DNA of 64,000 nucleotides from Candidatus Bathyarchaeota archaeon (GCA_963782525.1 CAWAKC010000001.1:128001-192000); one strand, 5' to 3'. Positions 12,368 through 36,328 are shown, counted from the first letter of the stretch. Notes: generated from the sequence alone by a model not told the origin. Numbers and translations: made by a program.

Positions 12368-13828
12368 CTACTCTTTTCCCTTTAGCAGTAACCAGTCATT
12401 GTCGCCAGCCTTTTTAAGCCGTACCAGAATGTAGCGTCCCTTGAGGCGTTGGCCGTCTAGGGTGACTTCGATTATGTCGTTCTCCCAGAGTTTAGCTTCG
12501 TAGTGTCCCTTATCCCAGATTTTCACAGTTCCAGCGCCATATTGCCCTTTGGGGATTTCGCCCTCAAAGCTGCCGTATTCGTAGGGGTGGTCTTCGGTTT
12601 CCACCGCTAAAACCTTCTGTCCAGCCTCAGGCATCCCCTTTGGAACTGCCCAGCTCTTGAGAACTCCATCCTTTTCCAATCTAAAGTCATAGTGGAGTCG
12701 TCTGGCATGGTGCTCTTGGATAACAAAGATGAGTTTATCCCCTTTTTTCTCTGGAACGCCTTTAGGTTCGGGGGTTTCTCCAAAATGACGTTTAGAGGCA
12801 TATTCAGACAGTTTCTCGTCTACTTCTGAAGCCTTTTCTTTGGCTCCACCTATATCCTCTCCGACACCTTCACTTTTTTTGGTTTCCAAGATTTGGTCAA
12901 TCGTACATTGTTCAGGTGGCTTATCATCTCTTAACCGTTTAAACCGTGCCATACGCAAACGCATATCCCTTGTTAACACTTGATAGGCGACTTCGCAAAC
13001 GAGTTTGGGTTCAAGCCACGTGACCACGTCGCCGGCTTCTGGCTTAAAGGGCGCAAGGTCAGTTTTTATTTTCTCAAATTTATCAGATAAAACCCCAATC
13101 ATCTGCTGAGTAAAACCCGTGCCCACCTTGCCCACATAGACAGGTTTACCGTTATCATAAACACCAAGCAACAGGGCGCCAAAAGTTTTCGCCCTAACCG
13201 CTTCGCCTCTTGTGTGCCCAAAGATTACGCAGTCACATGTTTTTAGTTTTTTTATCTTCAACCAACTCCCAGTCCGCAAACCTTCCTCGTATTGACTATC
13301 CTTGCGCTTCGCTACAACCCCCTCTAAGCCCTTTTCCAACACCAATTTGAAGTAGGATTCGCCTTTTTCTTCGATAAAATCGCATAAAAGCACGTTTGAG
13401 CCTTCAGGCAATGAGTCTTTCAGGATGGCTTTGCGCTCCATCAGTGGCAGTTCAGTCAGCGACTTTCCATCTTTCTCCAATATGTCAAAAACGATGTAGA
13501 CTACGGGGGCTCGACCTTCTTGGCGCTGGATTTCCCTCGTTGAAACGGCTTGCCCCCGTTCGAGGAGCGATTGGAAATCGGGTTTGCCCTCCCGCATCAC
13601 GATGATTTCGCCGTCAACAACTATGTTGTGGGCAAGCTTTGTTAGTTCCTGCAACTCGGAAAAATTTTGTTTCAACTCTTTCTCATTTCGACTCTTGAGG
13701 CTAAAGGGCTCCTCTACGTAAGCGATGGCGCGGAACCCGTCCCATTTAACCTCGAAAATCCAGTCCTTATCCGAAAAAGGCTCCTCAGCAACCTTTGCAA
13801 GCATAGGCAGGTAGATGCGGCGGCTCAT
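12368..13828 (-). CDS. ligD: NHEJ ATP-dependent DNA ligase (LigD LIG domain) fused to a C-terminal 3'-phosphoesterase (PE) domain
   Basis: EVKWDGFRA, VDGEI, FDIL, EGVVAK, WLKIK, VGKVGTGF; PE motifs KRHFGETPEP, IQEHHARRLHYDFRLE, SWAVPKG, EDHP, YGAG. Confidence 0.92.
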   Translation of the reverse strand: MSRRIYLPMLAKVAEEPFSDKDWIFEVKWDGFRAIAYVEEPFSLKSRNEKELKQNFSELQELTKLAHNIVVDGEIIVMREGKPDFQSLLERGQAVSTREIQRQEGRAPVVYIVFDILEKDGKSLTELPLMERKAILKDSLPEGSNVLLCDFIEEKGESYFKLVLEKGLEGVVAKRKDSQYEEGLRTGSWLKIKKLKTCDCVIFGHTRGEAVRAKTFGALLLGVYDNGKPVYVGKVGTGFTQQMIGVLSDKFEKIKTDLAPFKPEAGDVVTWLEPKLVCEVAYQVLTRDMRLRMARFKRLRDDKPPEQCTIDQILETKKSEGVGEDIGGAKEKASEVDEKLSEYASKRHFGETPEPKGVPEKKGDKLIFVIQEHHARRLHYDFRLEKDGVLKSWAVPKGMPEAGQKVLAVETEDHPYEYGSFEGEIPKGQYGAGTVKIWDKGHYEAKLWENDIIEVTLDGQRLKGRYILVRLKKAGDNDWLLLKGKE

Positions 13829-14661
13829 TTCTGCTCCAACTGTCTGAGGGTTTCCCGCAGGGCAACCATGAGGCCTTTGGCTTCGATTTCTGGAGGTTTC
13901 TCAATGTGGATTTTTTCGCCTTTCACTTTTTGTTTTACGAGTTCCTGCACTCGCTCCATGTAAGTGTCTTTGAATTCTGTTATATCGAATTCGCCTGAAA
14001 GGTCAGTGACGATTTTTACTGCAAGGTCTAATTCAGTTTTTTGGGGGGTTTCAAGCTTGTTTAAGGGTTCAAAATCTGTGGGGTCTACAACATCGTAGGC
14101 GTAACGTAGAGTCGTTAGAACCAAGGCTCCTTTGTAAGTGTGCAGAAGCGCTGGATATTCTTTGGTTCGGAGCATGATTCGTCCAGCGCCCGCCTTGTTT
14201 GTTTTTTCCAGCGCCTTTAACAATAAACTATAGGCATCTTTGCTTTTGTCAGGCAACAAAGCGTACGTTCTGTCAAAGTAGACAGGATCCACTGAAAAGT
14301 AATCGACAAACTTGCTTATGCGGATGCGCTTGTCGGATTCGGGTTTAGCCTCCTTAAGCTCCTTTTGGTCAAAGGTGATGTACTCGTTTTTAGCGACTTC
14401 GTAGCCGCGAACAACCTCATTCCAGGGCACTATTTTGTCATCTTTGGTGCACATCTTTACGTACTTTAAGGGTTGACCGTCGGTTTTATGCAGAAAATGA
14501 AACGCGATGCCCTTATCATAAATCATCGAAAACAACTTTACTGGAACATTCACCAAGCCAATCGTGATGTTTCCTGACCAAATGGATCTACTGGGGGCAG
14601 AAGCACTGGTTTTCTCTGTTGACTGATCGAGGTTTTCTTGTTCTTCTTGCTCTAAACTCAA
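13825..14661 (-). CDS. ku: Ku DNA end-binding protein
   Basis: RSIWSGNITIGLVNVPVKL, VRGYE, DPVYFDRTY, FKDTY, LMVALRETL; overlaps the ligase start. Confidence 0.95.
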   Translation of the reverse strand: MSLEQEEQENLDQSTEKTSASAPSRSIWSGNITIGLVNVPVKLFSMIYDKGIAFHFLHKTDGQPLKYVKMCTKDDKIVPWNEVVRGYEVAKNEYITFDQKELKEAKPESDKRIRISKFVDYFSVDPVYFDRTYALLPDKSKDAYSLLLKALEKTNKAGAGRIMLRTKEYPALLHTYKGALVLTTLRYAYDVVDPTDFEPLNKLETPQKTELDLAVKIVTDLSGEFDITEFKDTYMERVQELVKQKVKGEKIHIEKPPEIEAKGLMVALRETLRQLEQK

Positions 14662-14797
14662 AATTTTAACTCTCCAAAACCGTCAAAATCTGATTAAAAT
14701 AACTATGCGGCTTCAAAGGTTTAACCTTTTTCCGACTCCTATCATGATGAAAGAGAAGTGCCATGCTCTTATCTAAAAGTTTTTGTCCCCGCTTAGC

Positions 14798-16005
14798 TTA
14801 TGATTTTCTATTTGGGAACTGCACCATGTTGGCTTTCATGGCTGAAAGTGCTGCTTCTGCCTTTGGACCGCCTAAGTCTTTGGCAACTTCTTTTAGTTTC
14901 TCAGGGATGTTTATGTGCTGTGGATACCGTTCCAAGCATTTTTTGCATCCTTTACACAACGCCGCATCCGCTCGTGAACCCGTCAAACCACCCATCAGGA
15001 ACATAGCGTACATGCTACGAGTTTGTTGCTCGTCGCCTGACAAGTACAGTTCGTTGTAGGCTTGGAAGTTGCGGGGGATGTTTACGCCGTTTATGCAGGG
15101 CAAACAGTATTGGCAACCAGTGCAAGAAACCTTGAGGAGTTTTCGGTAAGCATCAGCAACCTGTTTTATCAATGCGAGTTCATTTGGATTCATGGAGTTT
15201 GGCAAGGCGACTTCAGCAGTTCTAATGTTTTCCATCACTTGGCTTTCCTCGTTCATGCCAGAAAGTACAAGGGTTACTTCAGGATGATTCCAAACCCACC
15301 GTAGTCCCCACTCAGCAGGACTTCGCTTAACTGCTGCATCATCATAGAATTTTTTAGCTTCGTTGGGTAGTTTATTTGCTAAGCTGCCGCCACGTAGAGG
15401 CTCCATAACCATGACTGCAAGCTTTTTTGAAGCAGCATACTTGAGACCTTCGGTACCCGCCTGCAGTTTTTCATCAAGGAAGTTGTACTGGATTTGGCAC
15501 ATAGTCCAGTCATTGGCTGCGATGATTTCTTTAAAAGTGGGAAGAGAACCATGGAAGGAGAATCCCATGTTAACGATTTTTCCTTCTGCTTTGGCTTTCT
15601 CCAAAAATTTTATGACTCCAAATCCCTGCAGTTTCTTCCAGAACTCGGCTTCTAACCCATGTAACAGGTAGTAGTCTATGTGTTCAGTTTGGAGTTTCTG
15701 CAACTGCAAGTTAAGCATTTTCTCCATATCTTCGGCCCGTCTAAGCATGAATGGGGTGAGTTTTGTGGCGACTTTGACTTTGTTTCGGTAGCCATCGAGC
15801 AGGGCTTTACCGAGGATTTTTTCGCTTTCACCCATATGGTAGGGGGAGCGGAGTCAACATAGTTTACGCCGTTGTCTATTGCAAGGCGGATTTGTTTAAT
15901 AGCGCGTTCTTCATCGACAACTTGCCCTTTCATGGGTAGACGCATACATCCGAACCCGAGGGCGGATAGTTTGTCGTTATTTTTTGGAACAATCCTGTAT
16001 TGCAT
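14798..16005 (-). CDS. Aldo/keto reductase with C-terminal 4Fe-4S domain (frameshift in G-run at ~15842-15846)
   Basis: LGFGCMRLP, IDYYLLH, GFSFH, QIQYN, MEPLRGG, CTGCQYCLPC. Confidence 0.88.
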
Positions 16006-16081
16006 GACTTCACACTCAAAGATTAGGTACTAAATAGCAAAAATAACGCATAACTTTTAAAGATTAACCAACTCTGAAAAA

Positions 16082-17077
16082 TTAGAGTTTCAAGACTGCT
16101 CTTTTTTCAAAAATATCTTTCCACGGATTACCCGTCCGCTTAACTACAGTAGAAATAGTGTAGTCGGTTGGGTTTATTCCTTTCTTCACTTCATTCCACT
16201 CCAAGGGAGTTGAAACGGTAGCGTCAGGCGTCGGACGCAAACTGTAGGGAACAACCATCGTGCGCAAAGGCGAATTCTGCAAGTAATCAGCAAAAACTTT
16301 GCCGGGCTTCTTGGTGTCCTTGAATTCGGATACAACCAGTTCACTTTCTTTTGTCAGCTCAACGCCAACTTCATGAACAAAAGCCCTCGCTTTCGCAAAG
16401 GAATATTCAGGTTCAATGGGAATTACAACATGCAACCCTTTTTTGCCCGAAGTCTTCACAAAAGGAGTAAGTCCTAAGTCAAGAAGCTTATCTTTCAACA
16501 ACAACGAAGCTTCCGCAGCGTCACTCAAAGTTGCAGGCGGTTCAGGGTCAACATCAAAGAACAGCAAGTCAGGCGTATCCAAGGCGTCGATTTTGGAGAA
16601 AGGCATATGGATTTCCAAAGAAGCCAAGTTCGCCAGCCAAATGAGCGTGTCTAAGTCATTGCAAACGATGTAGTAAACATCCCGCTTCGAGGTTGGTGAG
16701 TAGATTTTTTTGGTTTTGACCCAGTAGGGGGTTCCTTCGGGTGCATTCTTTTCGAAAAAACTAACCTTATCGCCCTCGATGCCATCTGGGTACCTGGTTA
16801 AAACTAAAGGTCTGTCGGCTATGACGGGGAGAATTTTTGGAGCCATCCGAATGTAATATTCAACAACTTGGCCTTTGGTTACTTTGTTTTTGGGATAGAA
16901 GACTTTGTCGAGGTTTTTTAAGTCAACTTTAGTTAAGTCTTTGAGTTCTTCGGTCATAGTTTTGCTCCAAAAATCAGCGTTATCTAATGTTAGGTGGAGC
17001 TTGTTTTTCTGCTTTTTGGAAGCCCACACATACCTTTGGCAGATTACACAAACGTTCAAGTTTTCCTTGAAAAACAC
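16082..17077 (-). CDS. LigD polymerase/primase (POL, AEP superfamily) stand-alone protein
   Basis: NLDKVFYP, LTRYPDGI, FFEKNAP, FDVDP, KTSGKKGLHV, DYLQN, PYSLR, VSTPLEW; true start probably ~16956. Confidence 0.92.
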   Translation of the reverse strand: MFFKENLNVCVICQRYVWASKKQKNKLHLTLDNADFWSKTMTEELKDLTKVDLKNLDKVFYPKNKVTKGQVVEYYIRMAPKILPVIADRPLVLTRYPDGIEGDKVSFFEKNAPEGTPYWVKTKKIYSPTSKRDVYYIVCNDLDTLIWLANLASLEIHMPFSKIDALDTPDLLFFDVDPEPPATLSDAAEASLLLKDKLLDLGLTPFVKTSGKKGLHVVIPIEPEYSFAKARAFVHEVGVELTKESELVVSEFKDTKKPGKVFADYLQNSPLRTMVVPYSLRPTPDATVSTPLEWNEVKKGINPTDYTISTVVKRTGNPWKDIFEKRAVLKL

Positions 17078-21137: not shown

Positions 21138-21569
21138 GTGTGGGTGCAGTTATTGAAGCTAAAGCTACAGATATTCACGCAAGATAACCTTGAAGGCAAC
21201 TACGTAGGCAGGCACTACCGCATCGCCGTAGTTGACTCGGATAAATCTAAGAGTTATCCATCGAATTTTATCTGTATGCTGCCATCTCAGATAAGTGTGG
21301 ACCAAAAAAAGAACAATGTTTTTTCAAAGATGTTCGGCGACAAATGTCAAGAACAAGCCAAAGTGCTCTTAACCCATGCTTTAGTGAGCGAGAATGACTC
21401 GGATGTAAAAAACGAGATTGAACGAAGACTCAAACTTCTCGACCCAAAAACCGTTAACCAGATAAAATGCAGCTCATGCGGAAAACTCTACCAGCCCCGA
21501 CGAATAAAACGGTTTAAACGAAATTATTGTCAAGAATGCATGACCAAAAGCTATGGCAATCGTGGATAG
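21138..21569 (+). CDS. Hypothetical protein with C-terminal C4 zinc finger
   Basis: CSSCG...YCQEC. Confidence 0.65.
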   Translation: MWVQLLKLKLQIFTQDNLEGNYVGRHYRIAVVDSDKSKSYPSNFICMLPSQISVDQKKNNVFSKMFGDKCQEQAKVLLTHALVSENDSDVKNEIERRLKLLDPKTVNQIKCSSCGKLYQPRRIKRFKRNYCQECMTKSYGNRG

Positions 21570-21745
21570 ATTAAGGAAGTGGTCTGTTTACTTCGCGATT
21601 GAAAAAACCCAAGCTGAAAGGGAGAGAGCTTCTCAACCGCTTCACAAGCTCTCCTCACAATCAACTAAGCGTTTCCACGCTGATTAAAGGGTTAACAAAC
21701 AGTTCAGCAAAAAACCTGAGTGTTGGTTTGAGCAGAAAAAACGTT

Positions 21746-22294
21746 CTAACGGATAGATTGTTTTTCTATTATATACATTAACGCACGAATGCCTTTTAGT
21801 ATCTTGTGGGGAGAAGGCGGGTTGCCTAAAATTTTGAGGTCAACATGGAAAATTTTGTCTGCGCCACCCAGAACAGCGTACGAATCGTTGAGGATTCCGC
21901 ATCCGCAAGCGTCATCGCCTACTGCAATTACGAATTTTGGCGCGGGCATGGCTTCGTAAGTTTTCTTGGCTGCTATCTCCATGTTGCGTGTTATGGCGCC
22001 TGTAACTATGAGGACGTCAGCATGTCGGGGGGAAGCGACGAAGGATATGCCGAAGCGTTCAACATCGCAGTATGGGGTTGAGAGGTTATTGAGTTCAATT
22101 TCCGTTGAATTGTCGCTGCCTGCATCTAGTTCACGGATGGCTAAGCTTCCGCCAAAAATCTTGTCCACTTTTTCCTTGATTTGCACACCTATAGCTTCGA
22201 ATTCCGAATCGCTAAACTGGAATTGGTCGGTGGTCGGTTTTTTGAAGACGTTAGAGATTGCTTTTGCCATAATATCACATATCCGTTCCTGCAT
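21746..22294 (-). CDS. Ehr/HyfI-like small subunit (NuoB family) lacking the canonical Fe-S cysteines
   Basis: DVERFGISFVASPRHADVLIVTG, YEAMPAPKFVIAVG, PPSP; start probably ATG ~22270. Confidence 0.9.
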   Translation of the reverse strand: MQERICDIMAKAISNVFKKPTTDQFQFSDSEFEAIGVQIKEKVDKIFGGSLAIRELDAGSDNSTEIELNNLSTPYCDVERFGISFVASPRHADVLIVTGAITRNMEIAAKKTYEAMPAPKFVIAVGDDACGCGILNDSYAVLGGADKIFHVDLKILGNPPSPHKILKGIRALMYIIEKQSIR

Positions 22295-23834
22295 ATGAGA
22301 GGTTCATGCTCTTGTTGATTAATGGAAAATCTGGAACAATATTTCCAAGGACGGCATGCTCCATGGCTTGCCAGTTGCAGAAAGAAGCCGTCCGCACCTT
22401 GTAGCGGTAGATTAAGCCTTCTTTGATTTGGACCCAATGAACGTTCTGTCCCCGAGGTGCCTCCACAAGCGACAAAGCATATCCGTCTTTGATTTGGCAA
22501 GGCACCGAAATGTCTCCACTTACAAATTCATTGAGTAATCGCTGAATTATTTGTACTGAATCCCGCACTTCTTTAGCTTTAAGGTTGAATCGGGCAAGAA
22601 CATCACCGTTTGCCTGAGTTCTGCCTTTAAGTTTAAGCTCTGGGTACAAACCATACGGATGGGTTATTCGTGTATCGCACATTTTTCCCGAAGCCCTTGC
22701 AACGGGACCTGTAATGTGGAGGGGTTCAAGGATTTCCGCTCTAACTTTGCCCGTAGTCTCGAACCGGTCAACGACCGAAAAGTAGGTGCTGTCGATTCCT
22801 GTGGCATCGTTGAGCCTCTCCGGGAAAGATAAAAGATAATTTGAGAGGTTTTTGAGTGCCCCTTCTGGAACATCCTTGGTTAATCCACCAACTACTACGA
22901 TGCCTTTCATGAATCTGGAACCAGTCAAAGCGTCGTTTTGCCTAAAAATTTCTTCTCTAAGGATGAAGAATGGGCTGGCACCAACGGGGTAGGCTACATC
23001 GACGCACATACCTGCCAAGTCTCCAAGATGCGAATAAATCCGTTCAAGCTCAAACAGTATAGTCCTAAGTTGTAGGGCTCGTTTTGGCACTTCTGAACCG
23101 CAGATTTTTTCAACCGCATTACAGTAGCCAACGGCGTTAGCGACGGTTTCGTCCCCACTAATAGTTTCAGCGATTCGAACGCAGTCTTGAGGTTTTACAC
23201 CTTCCGCAAGCTTCTCCAATCCGCGGTGCTTGTAGAAAAGCCTCACTTCCAGATTAAAAATGGTCTCACCGATAACGCTAAATCTGAAGTGACCAGGCTC
23301 TATAATTCCAGCGTGAACTGGCCCTACTGGAATCTGGTAGACTCCTTCGCCTTCAACCTGCTTGAAATAGTATTCGTTTTGGTCGCCGGCCGTTGAGGTT
23401 TCTATTTTGCCATTTTTGAATGATTTTAAGAGCGGATGGAAGCCTGACGGGTAAGTCTCATGCAGGAACAGTCTTCTTGTGTCGAAGGCTCCTTGGAATT
23501 CTATTCCGAAGCCGTCGGTGATTTCCCGTTCGTACCAACATGCGGATGGGTAAGTTTTAGCGATAGAAACCGCGTGATTATCGGTTAGAGTAGATTGCAG
23601 GACCAGGATTTGCTTGAAACCGGGAATTTCGAACGTATAGAATAGGGTGAATCCTTTTTCAGCGAAATCTTCAACGCAGAATAGGCTTATGAGTTCAAAC
23701 CTGTTTTCGTCGAAGATGCCGATGGCTTTTTGTAAGTCGATTATGTTGAGGGACAAGTATACGTCGTTGTTTAAGCCTTCAGTTAAGGTGAGTTTTTGGC
23801 CAGAAATTGTTTCGAGTACTTCTTTGAGGTTCAT
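22275..23834 (-). CDS. Ehr/HyfG-like large subunit (NuoC+NuoD fusion) without NiFe-binding motifs
   Basis: WYEREI, GPVHAGIIEPGHFRF, HRGLEK, ETISGD, ELERIYSH, EAPRG, DFPLINKSMNLSYAGTDM. Confidence 0.92.
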   Translation of the reverse strand: MNLKEVLETISGQKLTLTEGLNNDVYLSLNIIDLQKAIGIFDENRFELISLFCVEDFAEKGFTLFYTFEIPGFKQILVLQSTLTDNHAVSIAKTYPSACWYEREITDGFGIEFQGAFDTRRLFLHETYPSGFHPLLKSFKNGKIETSTAGDQNEYYFKQVEGEGVYQIPVGPVHAGIIEPGHFRFSVIGETIFNLEVRLFYKHRGLEKLAEGVKPQDCVRIAETISGDETVANAVGYCNAVEKICGSEVPKRALQLRTILFELERIYSHLGDLAGMCVDVAYPVGASPFFILREEIFRQNDALTGSRFMKGIVVVGGLTKDVPEGALKNLSNYLLSFPERLNDATGIDSTYFSVVDRFETTGKVRAEILEPLHITGPVARASGKMCDTRITHPYGLYPELKLKGRTQANGDVLARFNLKAKEVRDSVQIIQRLLNEFVSGDISVPCQIKDGYALSLVEAPRGQNVHWVQIKEGLIYRYKVRTASFCNWQAMEHAVLGNIVPDFPLINKSMNLSYAGTDM

Positions 23835-23839
23835 TTATT

Positions 23840-25315
23840 TCACCCTATTTTTAATTCTGACACGATGCTGTTGAGCAAGTTGGTTAGTTGCTGTGGGAAG
23901 AATACGCCCAAAGCAAAAACAGTGACCAAAAGGATTACAATTGGGATTTTCATGCCCAACGAAGCTTCATAACGCTTCACCCCTGGTGAATCTTCTTCTT
24001 TTTTGGACAGCAACTTAATCATAAAAATCCCGAATGCGCCAGCCACAAAAAGGAAAACTATCAGCAAACCCAAAAGCAAAAAAGGCGACAACTTGGTCGA
24101 TTCCAAAAGAATTGAAAGTTTGGGCAGAAAAATCGCTGATAGGGGCATGCCGATTATTGCTATTGTACCGAGTATCAGGCTCCATGCGGCGAAGGGTTGG
24201 AATTTGAAGACGTTTCTTATATGTTCCATTCGGACACTTTTATACTGATGGTGAAGGATACCTGCAGATAAGAAAAGGGAAGCCTTCGTGAAAGCATGTG
24301 CCAAAGTATAGAAAAGTAACCAGAACAACGCCAAAGGTGTTCCTATGCCTAACCCAACGAGAAGAAAACCCATGTTTTCCACGGTTGAGTAGCCGATGAG
24401 TTTCTTTAGGTTCACCTGGTTGAGCATTGTTAACGCTGCAATAACCATGCTTATCAAGCCAAAACCGATCAGGAACCAAGAAATTTTTGGCAACTCAGAG
24501 GTTTGGGATGCAATCGCGTAAACCCTGATAATGCCGTAGATGCCTACGCTTGTAACGCATCCTGATAGGATGGCGCTGACTGGGGCAGGAGCTTTAGAGT
24601 GCGCGCTGGGTAGCCAAGCGTGAAAAGGAACGATTCCTGATTTTGCAGCGAAGCCCACAAACGTGAAGATAAAGGCTGCAAACATTATTGCAGGTGACAG
24701 GGTGCTGGCGATTGACATTAATGAGCTCCAGTTGAGGGTGCCTGCACCAAAATTGTTTTCGGTTAGGGTAAAGATGAGTATTAAACCGATGAAAGAGAAG
24801 AGCATACAGGTGGAGGTTATGAAGACATACTTTAGAGTGGCTCCAATGTTTTTGGGCGCATTTAGGATGACTATGAGGACAGCTGAAAACGCGGTCGTTA
24901 ATTCTGCGAGAATCCAGAAGAGCGCAAGGTTGTCAGCAAAGAACGCGTATGTTATTGCCATTAAGAGCAGGTTGAAGGCGACGTAGAAGAGTTTGAGGCT
25001 GCTACGGTCCATCTCATGGATTTCGATGCTACCCTCAATGTAGCCCCTTGAATAAAGGGCTGCAAGCAGGAACAGGAACGCTGAAATCAAAATTTCGTAG
25101 AGGCTAAGATGGTCAACTAAGAAGTAGTTGCCCCCCAAAGAGTAGGTTGGTATTGCGGCGTAGACGAGGGTGAAGAGTGTGAGGACAAGGTAGGATGCTG
25201 GAAGTATGATTGATAAGATGTTCATGGTGCCGTGTGACTTAGAAACCACCGTTAGCAACAAGACCGCAACACCAACAAAGGCGTATATGGCTAATATCAG
25301 GTTTAATGATATCAT
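23840..25315 (-). CDS. HyfF-like antiporter subunit (NuoM/MrpD family)
   Basis: LAELTT, KSGIVPFHAWLPSAHSKAP, KKLIGYSTVENMG, HAFTKASLF. Confidence 0.9.
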   Translation of the reverse strand: MISLNLILAIYAFVGVAVLLLTVVSKSHGTMNILSIILPASYLVLTLFTLVYAAIPTYSLGGNYFLVDHLSLYEILISAFLFLLAALYSRGYIEGSIEIHEMDRSSLKLFYVAFNLLLMAITYAFFADNLALFWILAELTTAFSAVLIVILNAPKNIGATLKYVFITSTCMLFSFIGLILIFTLTENNFGAGTLNWSSLMSIASTLSPAIMFAAFIFTFVGFAAKSGIVPFHAWLPSAHSKAPAPVSAILSGCVTSVGIYGIIRVYAIASQTSELPKISWFLIGFGLISMVIAALTMLNQVNLKKLIGYSTVENMGFLLVGLGIGTPLALFWLLFYTLAHAFTKASLFLSAGILHHQYKSVRMEHIRNVFKFQPFAAWSLILGTIAIIGMPLSAIFLPKLSILLESTKLSPFLLLGLLIVFLFVAGAFGIFMIKLLSKKEEDSPGVKRYEASLGMKIPIVILLVTVFALGVFFPQQLTNLLNSIVSELKIG

Positions 25316-26031
25316 ATTTGTTCAGCCTCCAAATCCTTGATTTCCTCAGAAGTCTTTTTCTGTGAATCATGAAAAGGGTTGAGTCTTGCATGGAACTCTT
25401 CGATTGTTGAGTCGATGCCGAAAGCCAAGATAGTAGCGATAAGCGTTAACATTATCAAATCCACGATGATTAGAACCTCAATCAGCAGGGGAAGCTCAGT
25501 TAGGAAAAGGCTGAAGAGAACAACGCCGTTTTCCATCGTTAAGTAGCCAACGATGTTGGTTAGAGTTTGTTTTCTTGTGAAAATTACAATCATACCCATG
25601 AACACTATGGACATCCCGACGGTGGCGCCGAGAAAGAAGAGATTTGAATTAAAACGGTTCAACTCTGAGAGGAGACTGGAGAAGGCAAAGTAAACAAACA
25701 GTACGATAACTATACTGGCGAGCAACGCTGTTACGGGGCTGAGGAAATGGAACTTGACATCCCTTTTTATGTTAAGCCGCTTCTGCACGACTCCCATGAA
25801 ATGAGGAATAATCAACACTTTACTTACCAAAATAATGATTGCAAGGATCAGCAACGTTATGCTGCCTGTTTCGACAAAATACAGCAGCGCCATCGCTGCT
25901 AACAGCAAAGACTGGAAAGCATACGTCTTTATGAGGGAACGGATATCGCGTTTCATAATTATGACAGCTGCAGTTGCTAGAATCAGAACAATTAGGATTT
26001 GTGCAAGGTTTCCGGTTGAAGCGATTATCAT
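25312..26031 (-). CDS. HyfE-like membrane subunit
   Basis: YAFQS, SKVLIIP, GYLTMENG, ELPLLIE. Confidence 0.88.
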   Translation of the reverse strand: MIIASTGNLAQILIVLILATAAVIIMKRDIRSLIKTYAFQSLLLAAMALLYFVETGSITLLILAIIILVSKVLIIPHFMGVVQKRLNIKRDVKFHFLSPVTALLASIVIVLFVYFAFSSLLSELNRFNSNLFFLGATVGMSIVFMGMIVIFTRKQTLTNIVGYLTMENGVVLFSLFLTELPLLIEVLIIVDLIMLTLIATILAFGIDSTIEEFHARLNPFHDSQKKTSEEIKDLEAEQI

Positions 26032-26984
26032 GCAAACACCTCAATAATTAAGGTTATAATCGAGAGGAAAAGTGCGACTGCAAAAAGCCCTGGAAGACGG
26101 AATAAGCGGGATTTTGCGCATGAGGACTCAAATAACCCGATGATAATAGCGAGCACGATGGCTTTGAGAATAAAGGCGCCAAGCGAAATCAGGATTGGAA
26201 GAGCCGAGAAATCTGATGTTAATCCCCATGGAACAAGAATGTTGATGAGAATTCCCATGAGTAGTAGCTGTTTCATTGCGCTCGACATTTCCATCATAGC
26301 CAGGTTCTTTCCTGATTGCTCAAGAATCATGGCTTCATGAATCATTGTTAATTCGAGGTGGGTTTCTGGGTTATCCACGGGAACTCTGGCGGATTCTACA
26401 ATAATGACGATGAAGATCGAGATTGATACCAGGATTAGAACAGGATTAACCAGAATATTTGAGGCTAAGGCACCTCTGAACATGTCGGGCAGGTTTATGG
26501 TTTTGAAAGCAAACGCAAGGGCGGCAAAGACGACTATTATTACGGGTTCGATTAGTGCGGATATTGCCATTTCTCGGCTGCTTCCCATGCCGCCAAACGT
26601 GCTGCCCGCGTCAAGTCCGGAGAGTGCCATGAAAAACTTTGCCATCGCCAGCAAGTAGAGGAAGAGGATTATGTTTCCCACTAAATCGTTGGGTTGCGGT
26701 ATGACGACGAGCGGAACGAAAAGGCTTGCGACCAAAAGTGCTGCAATGTTTACAAGAGGTGTAATGCGCATAATCCATGACGAATTTGTAGAGTAGACGG
26801 TTTCTTTTTTGAGCAGCTTAGCCAAGTTGCGGTAAGTCTGGAGAATAGGTGGACCACGCCTTTTCTGAGCATGTGCTTTCACTATTTTTATTAAACTAAT
26901 GAATAAAGGCGAGATTAACAGGACAAAGAGCATGTTTAGGATGCCGTATGCGATTAGTGTCAAGTAATCCATTATGCAAACCAC
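26028..26984 (-). CDS. HyfC-like membrane subunit (NuoH family)
   Basis: RRGPPILQTYRNLAKLLKKE, GMGSSRE, RVPVDNPETHLELTMIHEAM. Confidence 0.92.
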   Translation of the reverse strand: MVCIMDYLTLIAYGILNMLFVLLISPLFISLIKIVKAHAQKRRGPPILQTYRNLAKLLKKETVYSTNSSWIMRITPLVNIAALLVASLFVPLVVIPQPNDLVGNIILFLYLLAMAKFFMALSGLDAGSTFGGMGSSREMAISALIEPVIIVVFAALAFAFKTINLPDMFRGALASNILVNPVLILVSISIFIVIIVESARVPVDNPETHLELTMIHEAMILEQSGKNLAMMEMSSAMKQLLLMGILINILVPWGLTSDFSALPILISLGAFILKAIVLAIIIGLFESSCAKSRLFRLPGLFAVALFLSIITLIIEVFA

Positions 26985-28912
26985 CAGATTATCAGTAGAA
27001 ATACAACTATAGTTACAAAGGCGTACGCGATGTGCAAGTCAGCGTCACCCCGCTGGACGTTGTTCACTTTTAGGGATATTTTTCTGATAATGGCTGCGGC
27101 GGGCAGGTAGATGCGCTCTTCGAAGAAATTTATCAAGTGAATTTCTGCTTTTCCATCCTTGAAAATTACGTTTTTATCGTCGTAGTAGTTTCGTTCGGAT
27201 TTCTTTTGGGTTCGGAAAATCGATTTTAGGATGGTGACTATTGGTTCGGAGAATCCTGAAGCGGTGTACTCCATCTTGGCTGTTTGGGTTGGGAATCCGC
27301 AACCCCATGTTTCAGCGATTCGTTCCCGCCTGTTAGCAACCTCACGCATGGCAATGAATGTAAACACATAGAAGCCTCCTAGTATTAACCCAATGAAGAG
27401 CATGTTTGGCAGCGGGAACGAGAAACCCAAAACACTGAAAAGCTGCAGAGAGAAAACTCCCAACGCAATACATAAAGCGGCTAGTATGGCTGGTCCAATA
27501 ATCATGAGTTTAGGTGATTCCTTAGCCATCTTTGCCTCGTTTGAGCGCGGCAATGCAAGGAAAGTTATCCCAAATGCCTTTACAAAACACGCCGCCGCAA
27601 GTGCACTTGTTAGAGCAAACACCGCCAATGAAGCAATCAAAATCACTTCAAGGAATGGGTTGGCTAAAGCTGCAGATTGAAAGAAGGCTTGAAAAATCAT
27701 GAGTTCACTTACGAACCCATTAAAAGGCGGCAACGCCGAAATTGAGACGGCACCGATTAAGAAAAGTAGGGCGGTTTTGGGCATACGCTTGATTAAGCCA
27801 CCCATTTCCTCGATGTTGCGTGTACCAGTAGCGTTGACTATGCTGCCGCTGGTCATGAAGAGCAGGCTTTTGAAGATGGCGTGGTTTAGGGTGTGGAATA
27901 GGGCACCTGCGAGGGCAAGAAATGCGATGGCTTCTAGCCCAGCGAGCGAGAAGATTACGAATAGTCCGACGCCGATTAAGATGATGCCGATGTTTTCGAT
28001 GCTGTGATAGGCGAGTAAACGTTTGATATCATGTTCTTTTAGAGCATAGATTACACCTAGTACCGCCGAGGTTGTTCCTGCAGCGAGGATTAGGATGCCC
28101 CACCAAGTTTGCATCGGCAAAAGCAATATAAAGCGCACTAAGCCGTAAATGGCGACTTTTATCATAACTCCTGACATAAGTGCGGATATGTTGGAAGGGC
28201 TTGCGGGATGGGCGTGTGGCAGCCATTTGTGGAAGGGTATGATTCCTGCTTTTATGCCGAAGCCCAAGAACAGAAATACAAATGCTATTGAAGTGATTAC
28301 GGGGTCTGCCCGTATCTGCCCCATATTGAAGGTGCCGGTCACAACGTAGATGAAGAGGAATGCGAAAAGAAGGAAAAGCGTACTTAAGTGGGTCATTATG
28401 AAGTAGAACATGCCTGCTTTCTGGGTGTCCTTTTTCTCAAACTCGACCATCACAAGTAAAAATGAGGAGAGCGCCATGATTTCCCAGAAAAACAGGAACG
28501 AAAACATGGAAAATGATGCGACAACTAGAACCATGGAGACGATAAAGATGTTCATGAAGGACACAATCAGATTTTTCCTGCCCTCGTGCTCAGTGTGCTC
28601 AACATAAGAAAACGAATAAATCGCCACTGCAACCGAAACAATCGCGACTAATACGAGAAAGAACGCCGCTAACCTATCGACAAAGAATGAGAACTGAAAA
28701 GAGGGCACCATCTGGTAGGCGAGGAGCGAAAAACTTTTGTTAGAGAGGATTATTTCCAAGGCAAAAGCCAAGATGGCGACACCAGCGATACAGGTGAATA
28801 TCAGAGAAGCCTGTCTTGGAGTTTTGCTGTTTGTCATTTTTGAGGCTAAAAGAGGCAAAAGGATTGCTACAAGAAATGAAGCTAAGCCTAACGGAAACAA
28901 GATTTCGAGCAT
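26972..28912 (-). CDS. HyfB-like antiporter subunit (NuoL/MrpA family)
   Basis: FWEIMALSS, KAGIIPFHKWLPHAHP, KRLLAYHSIENIG, NHAIFKSLLF, PPFNGFVSE, TWGCG. Confidence 0.92.
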   Translation of the reverse strand: MLEILFPLGLASFLVAILLPLLASKMTNSKTPRQASLIFTCIAGVAILAFALEIILSNKSFSLLAYQMVPSFQFSFFVDRLAAFFLVLVAIVSVAVAIYSFSYVEHTEHEGRKNLIVSFMNIFIVSMVLVVASFSMFSFLFFWEIMALSSFLLVMVEFEKKDTQKAGMFYFIMTHLSTLFLLFAFLFIYVVTGTFNMGQIRADPVITSIAFVFLFLGFGIKAGIIPFHKWLPHAHPASPSNISALMSGVMIKVAIYGLVRFILLLPMQTWWGILILAAGTTSAVLGVIYALKEHDIKRLLAYHSIENIGIILIGVGLFVIFSLAGLEAIAFLALAGALFHTLNHAIFKSLLFMTSGSIVNATGTRNIEEMGGLIKRMPKTALLFLIGAVSISALPPFNGFVSELMIFQAFFQSAALANPFLEVILIASLAVFALTSALAAACFVKAFGITFLALPRSNEAKMAKESPKLMIIGPAILAALCIALGVFSLQLFSVLGFSFPLPNMLFIGLILGGFYVFTFIAMREVANRRERIAETWGCGFPTQTAKMEYTASGFSEPIVTILKSIFRTQKKSERNYYDDKNVIFKDGKAEIHLINFFEERIYLPAAAIIRKISLKVNNVQRGDADLHIAYAFVTIVVFLLIIWWFA

Positions 28913-35728: not shown

Positions 35729-36328
35729 ATGAACATTCAAGAAAGGCGATATGCAAGAGGGAAAGGTTTGCCAAAAGTTAAAGCTACATTAAGCATAGAG
35801 AACGTGGTCGCTTCGGCAACGCTCAACCAGAAAGTCGATTTAAACGCAGTCGTCAAAGGTTATCCAGGCGTTGAATATCGCCCCGAACAGTTCCCAGGCT
35901 TAGTTTTTCGATTAAAACGCCCCAAAACGGCCACATTGATTTTCAGCTCAGGAAAAATGGTCTGCACAGGCGCCAAATCTGAGAAGGAAGCGCGCCGAGC
36001 CGTCATGAAAGTTGTGAAGGAACTCAAGAAGGGCGGAATCATAATCATCAGCAAACCCGAAATGAAAATTCAAAACATCGTTGCCTCAGGCATCTTGGGC
36101 GGCATGATTGACCTCGAAAAAGCCGCATACACCCTCGACCACGCCATGTATGAACCTGAACAGTTTCCAGGCTTAATCTACCGTATGGCAGAACCCAAAG
36201 TTGTCATTTTGCTCTTCGCCAGCGGCAAACTTGTCTGTACTGGAGGCAAAAAAGAACAGGATGTTTATGACTCAGTGGATAAATTGCATGCGCTACTCGA
36301 AGAAACCAGCCTAATCTACTACGAATAA
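35729..36328 (+). CDS. tbp: TATA-box binding protein
   Basis: Two repeats: IENVVAS..YRPEQFPGL..LIFSSGKMVCTG and IQNIVAS..YEPEQFPGL..LLFASGKLVCTG. Confidence 0.97.
   Translation: MNIQERRYARGKGLPKVKATLSIENVVASATLNQKVDLNAVVKGYPGVEYRPEQFPGLVFRLKRPKTATLIFSSGKMVCTGAKSEKEARRAVMKVVKELKKGGIIIISKPEMKIQNIVASGILGGMIDLEKAAYTLDHAMYEPEQFPGLIYRMAEPKVVILLFASGKLVCTGGKKEQDVYDSVDKLHALLEETSLIYYE

Follow-up and report, generated by a model that had tools for sequence, protein, structure and literature searches.

A 64,000-nucleotide stretch of a Candidatus Bathyarchaeota archaeon genome (GCA_963782525.1, CAWAKC010000001.1:128001-192000; hereafter the window) encodes on its minus strand, at 21746-28912, a complex of the Ehr type, related to [NiFe] hydrogenases and complex I, in which the ligands of the NiFe site and of the proximal [4Fe-4S] cluster have been replaced by other residues. 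The replacements in the small subunit are conserved among its closest homologues, and the residues that form ion channels in related membrane subunits are largely retained. We propose, at about an even chance of being right, that the complex is a redox-independent ion translocator and that its head, derived from a hydrogenase, persists as an acid-lined module with a structural or gating role.

The operon is tight: six co-directional genes, all with intact frames, are translationally coupled, adjacent genes overlapping by 4-13 nt or standing 4-5 nt apart. Pfam and NCBIfam profiles assigned the genes as follows; the last line gives what lies just past them.

26972..28912, minus strand: EhrA, HyfB/HycC/NuoL-like antiporter-type subunit, 646 aa (PF00361, 4.5e-60; PF00662)
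26028..26984, minus strand: EhrB, HyfC/HycD/NuoH-like subunit, 318 aa as listed (PF00146, 9.6e-34)
25312..26031, minus strand: EhrC, HyfE-like small membrane subunit, 239 aa (NF008556, hydrogenase 4 membrane subunit, 2.4e-18)
23840..25315, minus strand: EhrD, HyfF/NuoM-N/MbhH-like antiporter-type subunit, 491 aa (PF00361, 6e-49)
22275..23834, minus strand: EhrL, fused NuoC + NuoD/HycE-like large subunit, 519 aa (PF00346, PF00329, PF00374)
21746..22270, minus strand: EhrS, NuoB/HycG-like small subunit, 174 aa from Met9, the open reading frame (ORF) extending to 22294 (PF01058, 2e-22)
21709..21741, minus strand: two T6 tracts directly past the EhrS stop codon, read from the sequence

Both antiporter-type subunits scored above the cut-offs of their NCBIfam models (EhrA with NF006418, 883 bits against 794; EhrD with NF006427, 594 bits against 511). 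The best solved relative of EhrA is HycC of the Escherichia coli formate hydrogenlyase (7z0s_C, 3.4e-72), and EhrB matched HycD of the same complex (7z0s_D, 5.3e-45). EhrB is listed from a GTG start, an ATG four codons downstream being a possible alternative. EhrC reached 66.8 bits with NF008556, under the curated cut-off of 136, and matched no Pfam family above its cut-off; its homologue occupies the same operon position in related loci. Oligo-T tracts serve as archaeal terminators, and the two T6 tracts after EhrS probably mark the end of the transcription unit. The G+C content of the operon (0.44-0.46) lies within the range of the window (0.38-0.49). The full Ehr set of HyfB-, HyfC-, HyfE-, HyfF-, HycE/NuoD- and HycG/NuoB-like subunits is present, and the same gene order recurs in the related loci L002-L004 and L006-L008. 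A first-pass annotation made from the sequence alone had described a six-gene hyfB-C-E-F-G-I-like operon without a NuoI/HyfH ferredoxin subunit, in which the large subunit lacks both NiFe CxxC motifs and the small subunit all four canonical [4Fe-4S] ligands. The gene calls and profile matches bear out the operon, and the domain searches and alignments described below bear out the rest.

In the small subunit EhrS (residues numbered on the 182-aa ORF), alignment to HycG (7z0s_G, 3.3e-26) and to mammalian NDUFS7 places Asp61, Thr64, Asp128 and Asn158 at the four [4Fe-4S] cysteines. The motifs around the former cluster are kept as Gly-Ser-x-Asn-x-x-Glu, Gly-Asp-x-Ala-Cys and Gly-x-Pro-Pro; the changes fall on the four ligands only, two of them to Asp. 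Across 121 rows, comprising the query and its 120 closest database homologues (70-95% identity), Asp61, Glu65, Asp128 and Cys130 are invariant and Asn62 (120 rows), Asp127 (119) and Asn158 (116) nearly so, while position 64 varies among Thr, Ala and Val. An AlphaFold2 model of EhrS built with 50 aligned sequences had a mean predicted local distance difference test (pLDDT) score of 91.2 and can be superposed on MbhJ, from the membrane-bound hydrogenase (MBH) of Pyrococcus furiosus (6cfw_J), with a root-mean-square deviation of 1.9 Å over 137 columns, the predicted fold being intact. As an internal control, the NuoB of an Fpo/Nuo-like cluster in the same genome retains its four cysteines. That cluster, at about 101.5-110.7 kb of contig C3, also holds a fused NuoCD-like gene and three antiporter-type subunits, and three more Oxidored_q6 genes lie outside it in the same genome.

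The 121-row alignment also bears on the start of EhrS and on its remaining cysteines. Gaps occupy positions 1-6 in 105-106 rows, position 7 in 101 and position 8 in 92; Met stands at position 9 in 110, and the 174-aa form is that of the database record. Met9 (22270) is most likely the true start, giving 174 aa. Of the remaining cysteines, which the first-pass annotation had placed at non-canonical positions, Cys130 alone is invariant; Cys76 is specific to this genome (Tyr in 120 of the rows) and Cys132 occurs in 71. Coordination of a cluster through alternative cysteines was considered and rejected, since neither EhrS nor EhrL has more than a single invariant Cys.

The large subunit EhrL was aligned to E. 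coli HycE with HMMER (7z0s_E, 8.1e-66). Ser226 and Glu229 stand at the two L1 cysteines and Ser513 and Gly516 at the two L2 cysteines, so that Ser, Glu, Ser and Gly take the four NiFe positions. The single invariant Cys of EhrL, Cys486, is present in all 122 clade members. A set of polar residues (His174, Glu179, His182, Asp228, Asn507, Lys508, Ser509, Ser513 and Tyr514) is conserved across Ehr proteins with or without the cluster ligands in their small subunits, and the role of the former NiFe site is common to the whole Ehr family.

None of the six operon proteins contains a Fer4-type domain. Among the flanking genes of the window the only Fer4 domain belongs to an unrelated aldo/keto reductase about 6 kb away. 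These flanks encode a glycosyltransferase-like protein, proteins of unknown function, a GNAT acetyltransferase and an Lhr helicase, with no redox partner among them; the 30 flanking ORFs of seven clade loci have nothing consistent in common, a redox partner included.

The ratio of nonsynonymous to synonymous substitution rates (dN/dS, Nei-Gojobori) for EhrS was 0.06-0.14 in four of the nine pairs formed by this gene and its same-genus orthologues, the remaining five pairs being saturated at synonymous sites. These values and the 121-row conservation support the earlier suggestion that the cysteine changes were selected and do not reflect random decay, and they point to purifying selection acting on the ligand substitutions. 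Close orthologues do not keep the cysteines either, which are missing from all 120 closest homologues and from the eight related loci L001-L008.

How widespread this state is was assessed in two samples. An exhaustive search of 1.84 billion representative proteins returned, among the best 150 NuoB-like representatives, 93 with four cysteines and 16 that align at each of the four positions and have at most one. Species-representative genomes, scanned with an alignment of small subunits poor in Cys, yielded 80 loci, a sample biased by that query. Four cysteines are found in the small subunit of 55 of these loci and at most one in 25, a proportion that, though drawn with a Cys-less query, makes the first description of the ligand loss as unusual an overstatement. 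Nor is the ligand-free state specific to the window copy, being clade-wide and present in other Ehr clades as well. A large-subunit ORF was found in 76 of the 80 loci, and 75 of the 76 lack the NiFe cysteines in their readable motifs (one motif is missing in three). Locus L061, from a Chloroflexota metagenome-assembled genome (MAG), is the only one with both NiFe cysteine pairs and shows the reverse combination: its small subunit retains just a single cluster cysteine out of four and is extended at the N terminus by a stretch carrying one CxxCxxCxxxC motif.

L001-L008 share the gene order of the window and its Asp-x-Asp-Asn pattern at 52-67% identity, and derive from a Methanomicrobiales MAG, a Moduliflexus MAG, two Methanosarcina (one a complete genome), Dehalococcoidales, Methanoregulaceae, Dehalogenimonas and Methanosarcinales. 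Large-subunit homologues at 69-72% identity are named Bathyarchaeia or Bathyarchaeota. Such a clade of mixed archaeal and bacterial membership points to horizontal transfer. The Methanomicrobiales MAG (L001, 2332-9522) has its A, D and L genes broken up, each into two or three ORFs, probably by assembly frameshifts and not by decay.

In a quick-search tree of the large subunit (75 rows, 530 columns; L001 omitted because its large subunit is in pieces), the query and L002-L008 fall together with support 100, and the stem of their clade is long. Four cysteines are kept by the neighbours of this clade, of which Thermoproteota and Nitrososphaeraceae are nearest (support 85); Bacillota come next, and in their small subunits a ferredoxin domain with two motifs is fused on. 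The tree has two more ligand-poor groups, each with support 100 and different replacement residues, one of 13 rows (bacteria of the Candidate Phyla Radiation (CPR), Syntrophus and others), with the gene order S-A-B-(C)-D-L, and one of 3 rows. The free tree requires three state changes, and a tree uniting all 25 ligand-poor rows was not rejected (approximately unbiased test, p-AU 0.22); the starred branches of the small-subunit tree, which is poorly resolved on 119 columns, force at least five. The ligands may have been lost independently once or up to several times. By a hand tally, distinct ligand patterns containing no more than one Cys number 23, and at least two Asp or Glu occur in 17 of them, the underlying sequences being related and not independent. 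A search for the operon located it in 9 of 36 genomes of the same genus and in none of 24 that represent other families of the order.

Conservation in the membrane arm was examined in the same family. Glu144, Lys221, Lys252, Lys348 and Glu403 of EhrA are each present in all 61 aligned Ehr A subunits; in EhrD, Glu138 is found in 64 of 64 and Lys225 in 63 of 64 aligned D subunits. Over the 67 aligned rows of EhrB, conservation reaches at least 95% at 21 positions occupied by a charged residue or His, among them Glu138, Glu146, Glu197, Glu211, Glu217, Glu222, Glu232 and Glu286, and nine acidic residues are invariant. In alignments to NuoM, HycC, MbhH and MrpA/D, the conserved residues of the A and D subunits fall on the Glu of transmembrane helix (TM) 5, the Lys of TM7 and TM8, and the Lys/Glu of TM12 of proton channels. 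What we take to be E144, K234, K265 and E407 of E. coli NuoM align with Glu138, Lys225, Ser256 and Lys399 of EhrD. The TM8 position of EhrD is thus Ser here, and it is Asn in 54 of the 64 rows, as against Lys in NuoM and MbhH. With the exception of this position, the ion-channel residues of the membrane arm are intact. At the TM12 position of EhrD, Lys399 occurs in all seven clade members compared, as against Glu in 52 of 64 Ehr D subunits.

The arrangement of the six subunits would probably follow that seen in the core of formate hydrogenlyase, MBH or complex I, with two antiporter-type subunits (A and D), the NuoH-like B, the small membrane subunit C and a NuoCD/NuoB-like head (L and S). Because the head has neither the NiFe nor the proximal [4Fe-4S] site and no ferredoxin subunit is encoded, electron transfer as in its relatives is not possible. 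Under the redox-independent reading, ions could be moved either by Mrp-like cation/proton antiport or by a gradient-coupled device, and the head would form a structural or gating cap over the NuoH-type channel. Its former cluster pocket would be lined by Asp61, Asn62, Glu65, Asp127, Asp128, Cys130 and Asn158. An oxidised [4Fe-4S] cluster with four thiolates has a net charge of about -2, which the two carboxylates gained here would mimic; alternatively, they may provide a site at which a proton or cation binds. A more specific version, which we advance tentatively and regard as somewhat more apt to fail than to hold, is that the head has been rebuilt as an acid-lined chamber for loading ions or protons. 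In it, two Asp and an Asn would stand in for cluster N2 and imitate its charge, the former NiFe site would hold an invariant Asp-Lys pair, and the NuoH-type channel and two antiporter-type subunits would be worked by ion binding or non-redox chemistry and not by electron transfer.

Several points weigh against redox-independent transport. Four small-subunit cysteines are retained in 55 of the 80 Ehr loci, and a secondary antiporter has no obvious need for a cytoplasmic head of 690 residues. The former NiFe site is equally conserved in complexes that keep the cysteines and in those that lack them, and the core function of Ehr may involve chemistry at that large-subunit site. The placement of the substituted residues in one pocket is drawn by homology from solved cluster-binding subunits. 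EhrD, without the TM8 lysine, may not be a standard proton channel. Finally, the operon is dispensable and accessory, being found in just a quarter of the same-genus genomes searched.

Next in standing, and in our view unlikely, is that the acid pocket, the former NiFe site or both hold a small substrate or a metal (Mg, Ca, Mn, Fe or Zn) with no Cys among its ligands, and that non-redox chemistry there (hydration/dehydration, decarboxylation or ligand exchange) drives, or is driven by, ion flow through the antiporter subunits. The invariance or near-invariance of Asp61, Glu65, Asp127, Asp128, Cys130 and Asn158 would suit such a site, as would the enrichment of carboxylates at the ligand positions in several ligand-poor clades and the universal conservation of the EhrL polar set; the carboxylates, however, may just fill the cavity and balance its charge. 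A beta-carbonic anhydrase gene (PF00484) lies on the minus strand about 1.2 kb upstream of the Ehr operon in two of seven related loci (L001, 556-1134; L006, 572-1150), a weak lead to CO2/bicarbonate chemistry. Both loci are from Methanomicrobiales and so amount to one observation, the gene is on the strand opposite to the operon, and neither the window nor any of the remaining five clade loci has it.

A redox enzyme in disguise, with a cluster on unusual ligands or with a separately encoded partner feeding electrons directly into the head site, is improbable. Published readings of Ehr, in the portions of the papers available to us, presume redox coupling to a partner such as formate dehydrogenase (PMC6349859, PMC7894505), and sister Ehr clades keep the four cysteines, in some cases with a fused two-cluster ferredoxin domain (two CxxCxxCxxxC motifs in L022, L053 and L071). 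The complex studied here has no ferredoxin domain and no conserved partner nearby, and the loss of the proximal cluster leaves no path for electrons into the head. EhrS and EhrL each offer a single invariant Cys, and we know of no Fe-S cluster held by one Cys with Asp, Asp and Asn. That the operon is a decaying or functionless hydrogenase relic, as the loss of every cofactor site and the patchy occurrence among genomes of the genus and order might suggest, can practically be set aside in view of six intact, translationally coupled frames, the low dN/dS, a gene order kept across archaeal and bacterial phyla and the invariant residues of the membrane subunits.

No ATP synthase gene was found among the 22 ORFs scanned at 10-41 kb of the window. 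The operon has no fluoride riboswitch ahead of it: nothing in the 64-kb window, which contains no tRNA gene, scored as high as the gathering threshold of any Rfam family, and the Rfam matches in 17 related loci were tRNAs only, with no riboswitch. On the plus strand at 21138-21569, a 143-aa ORF without a Pfam match converges on the end of the operon; its C-terminal part has two CxxC pairs with the look of a zinc ribbon. A TATA-binding protein gene, located at 35729-36328, marks the host as archaeal. The window also carries, at 12368-17077 on the minus strand, a non-homologous end-joining set, here in an archaeon:

12368-13828, minus strand: ATP-dependent DNA ligase with a LigD 3'-phosphoesterase domain
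13825-14661, minus strand: Ku
16082-17077, minus strand: LigD primase-polymerase

In complex I, MBH and formate hydrogenlyase, the way in which chemistry in the head is passed on to the antiporter-type subunits is still debated. A conserved relative that has the NuoB/NuoD/NuoH junction and the pumping residues but no redox cofactor separates the coupling machinery from electron transfer. If the complex transports ions, its head would have a role beyond catalysis, for example in gating, charge relay or assembly, and if the acid-lined chamber is real, it would be a natural experiment on how the complex I head communicates with the pump. If the function is another one, the operon offers a testable lead for a family widespread in methanogens, Dehalococcoidia, Bathyarchaeia, CPR bacteria and others. 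The genes of such operons are routinely annotated as subunits of 'Ni,Fe-hydrogenase III' or 'formate hydrogenlyase', and metabolic reconstructions that count them as H2-evolving are therefore probably wrong.

Among known systems, complex I and Fpo-like complexes have eleven core subunits including NuoA, I, J and K and three antiporter-type subunits, plus cluster N2; the window operon has six genes and no N2 ligands. Mrp antiporters (7qru, 6z16, 7d3u) move ions without redox chemistry, as is proposed for the window complex, and EhrA resembles MrpA (4.7e-48) and EhrD MrpD (1.2e-25). Mrp has no NuoB-, NuoD- or NuoH-like subunits, whereas Ehr lacks MrpB, E, F and G, so that of the MrpA-G set the window complex has MrpA/D-like subunits only. 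No match to MrpG (PF03334) was found in the genome itself or in any of 61 genomes of the order, in a search whose control matched 7 of 14 well-known genomes; with MrpG in none of the 61, a presence-absence contrast between Mrp and Ehr was not possible.

The features of the group 4 [NiFe] hydrogenases (Hyc, Hyf, Ech and Mbh) that are missing from the window operon are the NiFe cysteines, a four-Cys proximal [4Fe-4S] cluster and a two-cluster ferredoxin subunit. Within this group, the E. coli formate hydrogenlyase (7z0s) provides the best solved relatives of four window subunits, in HycC, HycD, HycE and HycG. The window complex differs from formate hydrogenlyase and Hyf in having no NiFe ligands, proximal cluster, HycF/HyfH ferredoxin or HycB and no formate dehydrogenase nearby, and resembles Hyf in its second antiporter-type subunit and HyfE-like subunit. 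The P. furiosus MBH (6cfw), whose MbhJ matches the EhrS model as described above and whose MbhH is the closest to EhrD (3.4e-38), has a NiFe site, three [4Fe-4S] clusters and a separate Mrp-type sodium module, none of which is present here. A Fpo-like hydrogenase described in PMC7886697, so far as the available text of that paper goes, is a different complex that keeps its NiFe ligands.

The closest correspondence is with the Ehr complexes themselves. Their function is given as unknown in the available parts of PMC7894505, PMC10284858, PMC4378227, PMC3569383 and PMC6349859, and these, together with the parts available of PMC5037454, PMC7304191 and PMC4758237, describe NiFe loss only. Loss of the small-subunit cluster ligands found no mention in the portions of the full-text Ehr literature consulted; Coppi 2005 and Marreiros 2013 lay outside it, and a prior description is possible. 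An Ehr clade of CPR bacteria is described, in the part of the paper available to us, as having a large subunit without metal-binding cysteines (Jaffe et al. 2020, PMC7304191), and in the loci fetched here its small subunits have at most one of the four cysteines, as in the window. These CPR complexes fall in the separate 13-row clade of the large-subunit tree, and differ from the window operon (A-B-C-D-L-S) in gene order as well as in replacement residues. The Ehr complex of Geobacter sulfurreducens (EhrA-D, L and S) has the same six subunits in the same order as the window operon, and Ehr large subunits lack the NiFe CxxC motifs, as here. EhrS of the window additionally lacks the four [4Fe-4S] ligands, which most of the fetched Ehr-type loci keep. 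The window operon combines both features that define Ehr, the six-subunit set and the large subunit free of NiFe ligands. The Ehr family itself is already known, and the window operon is a clade-wide Ehr variant, not an oddity of one genome.

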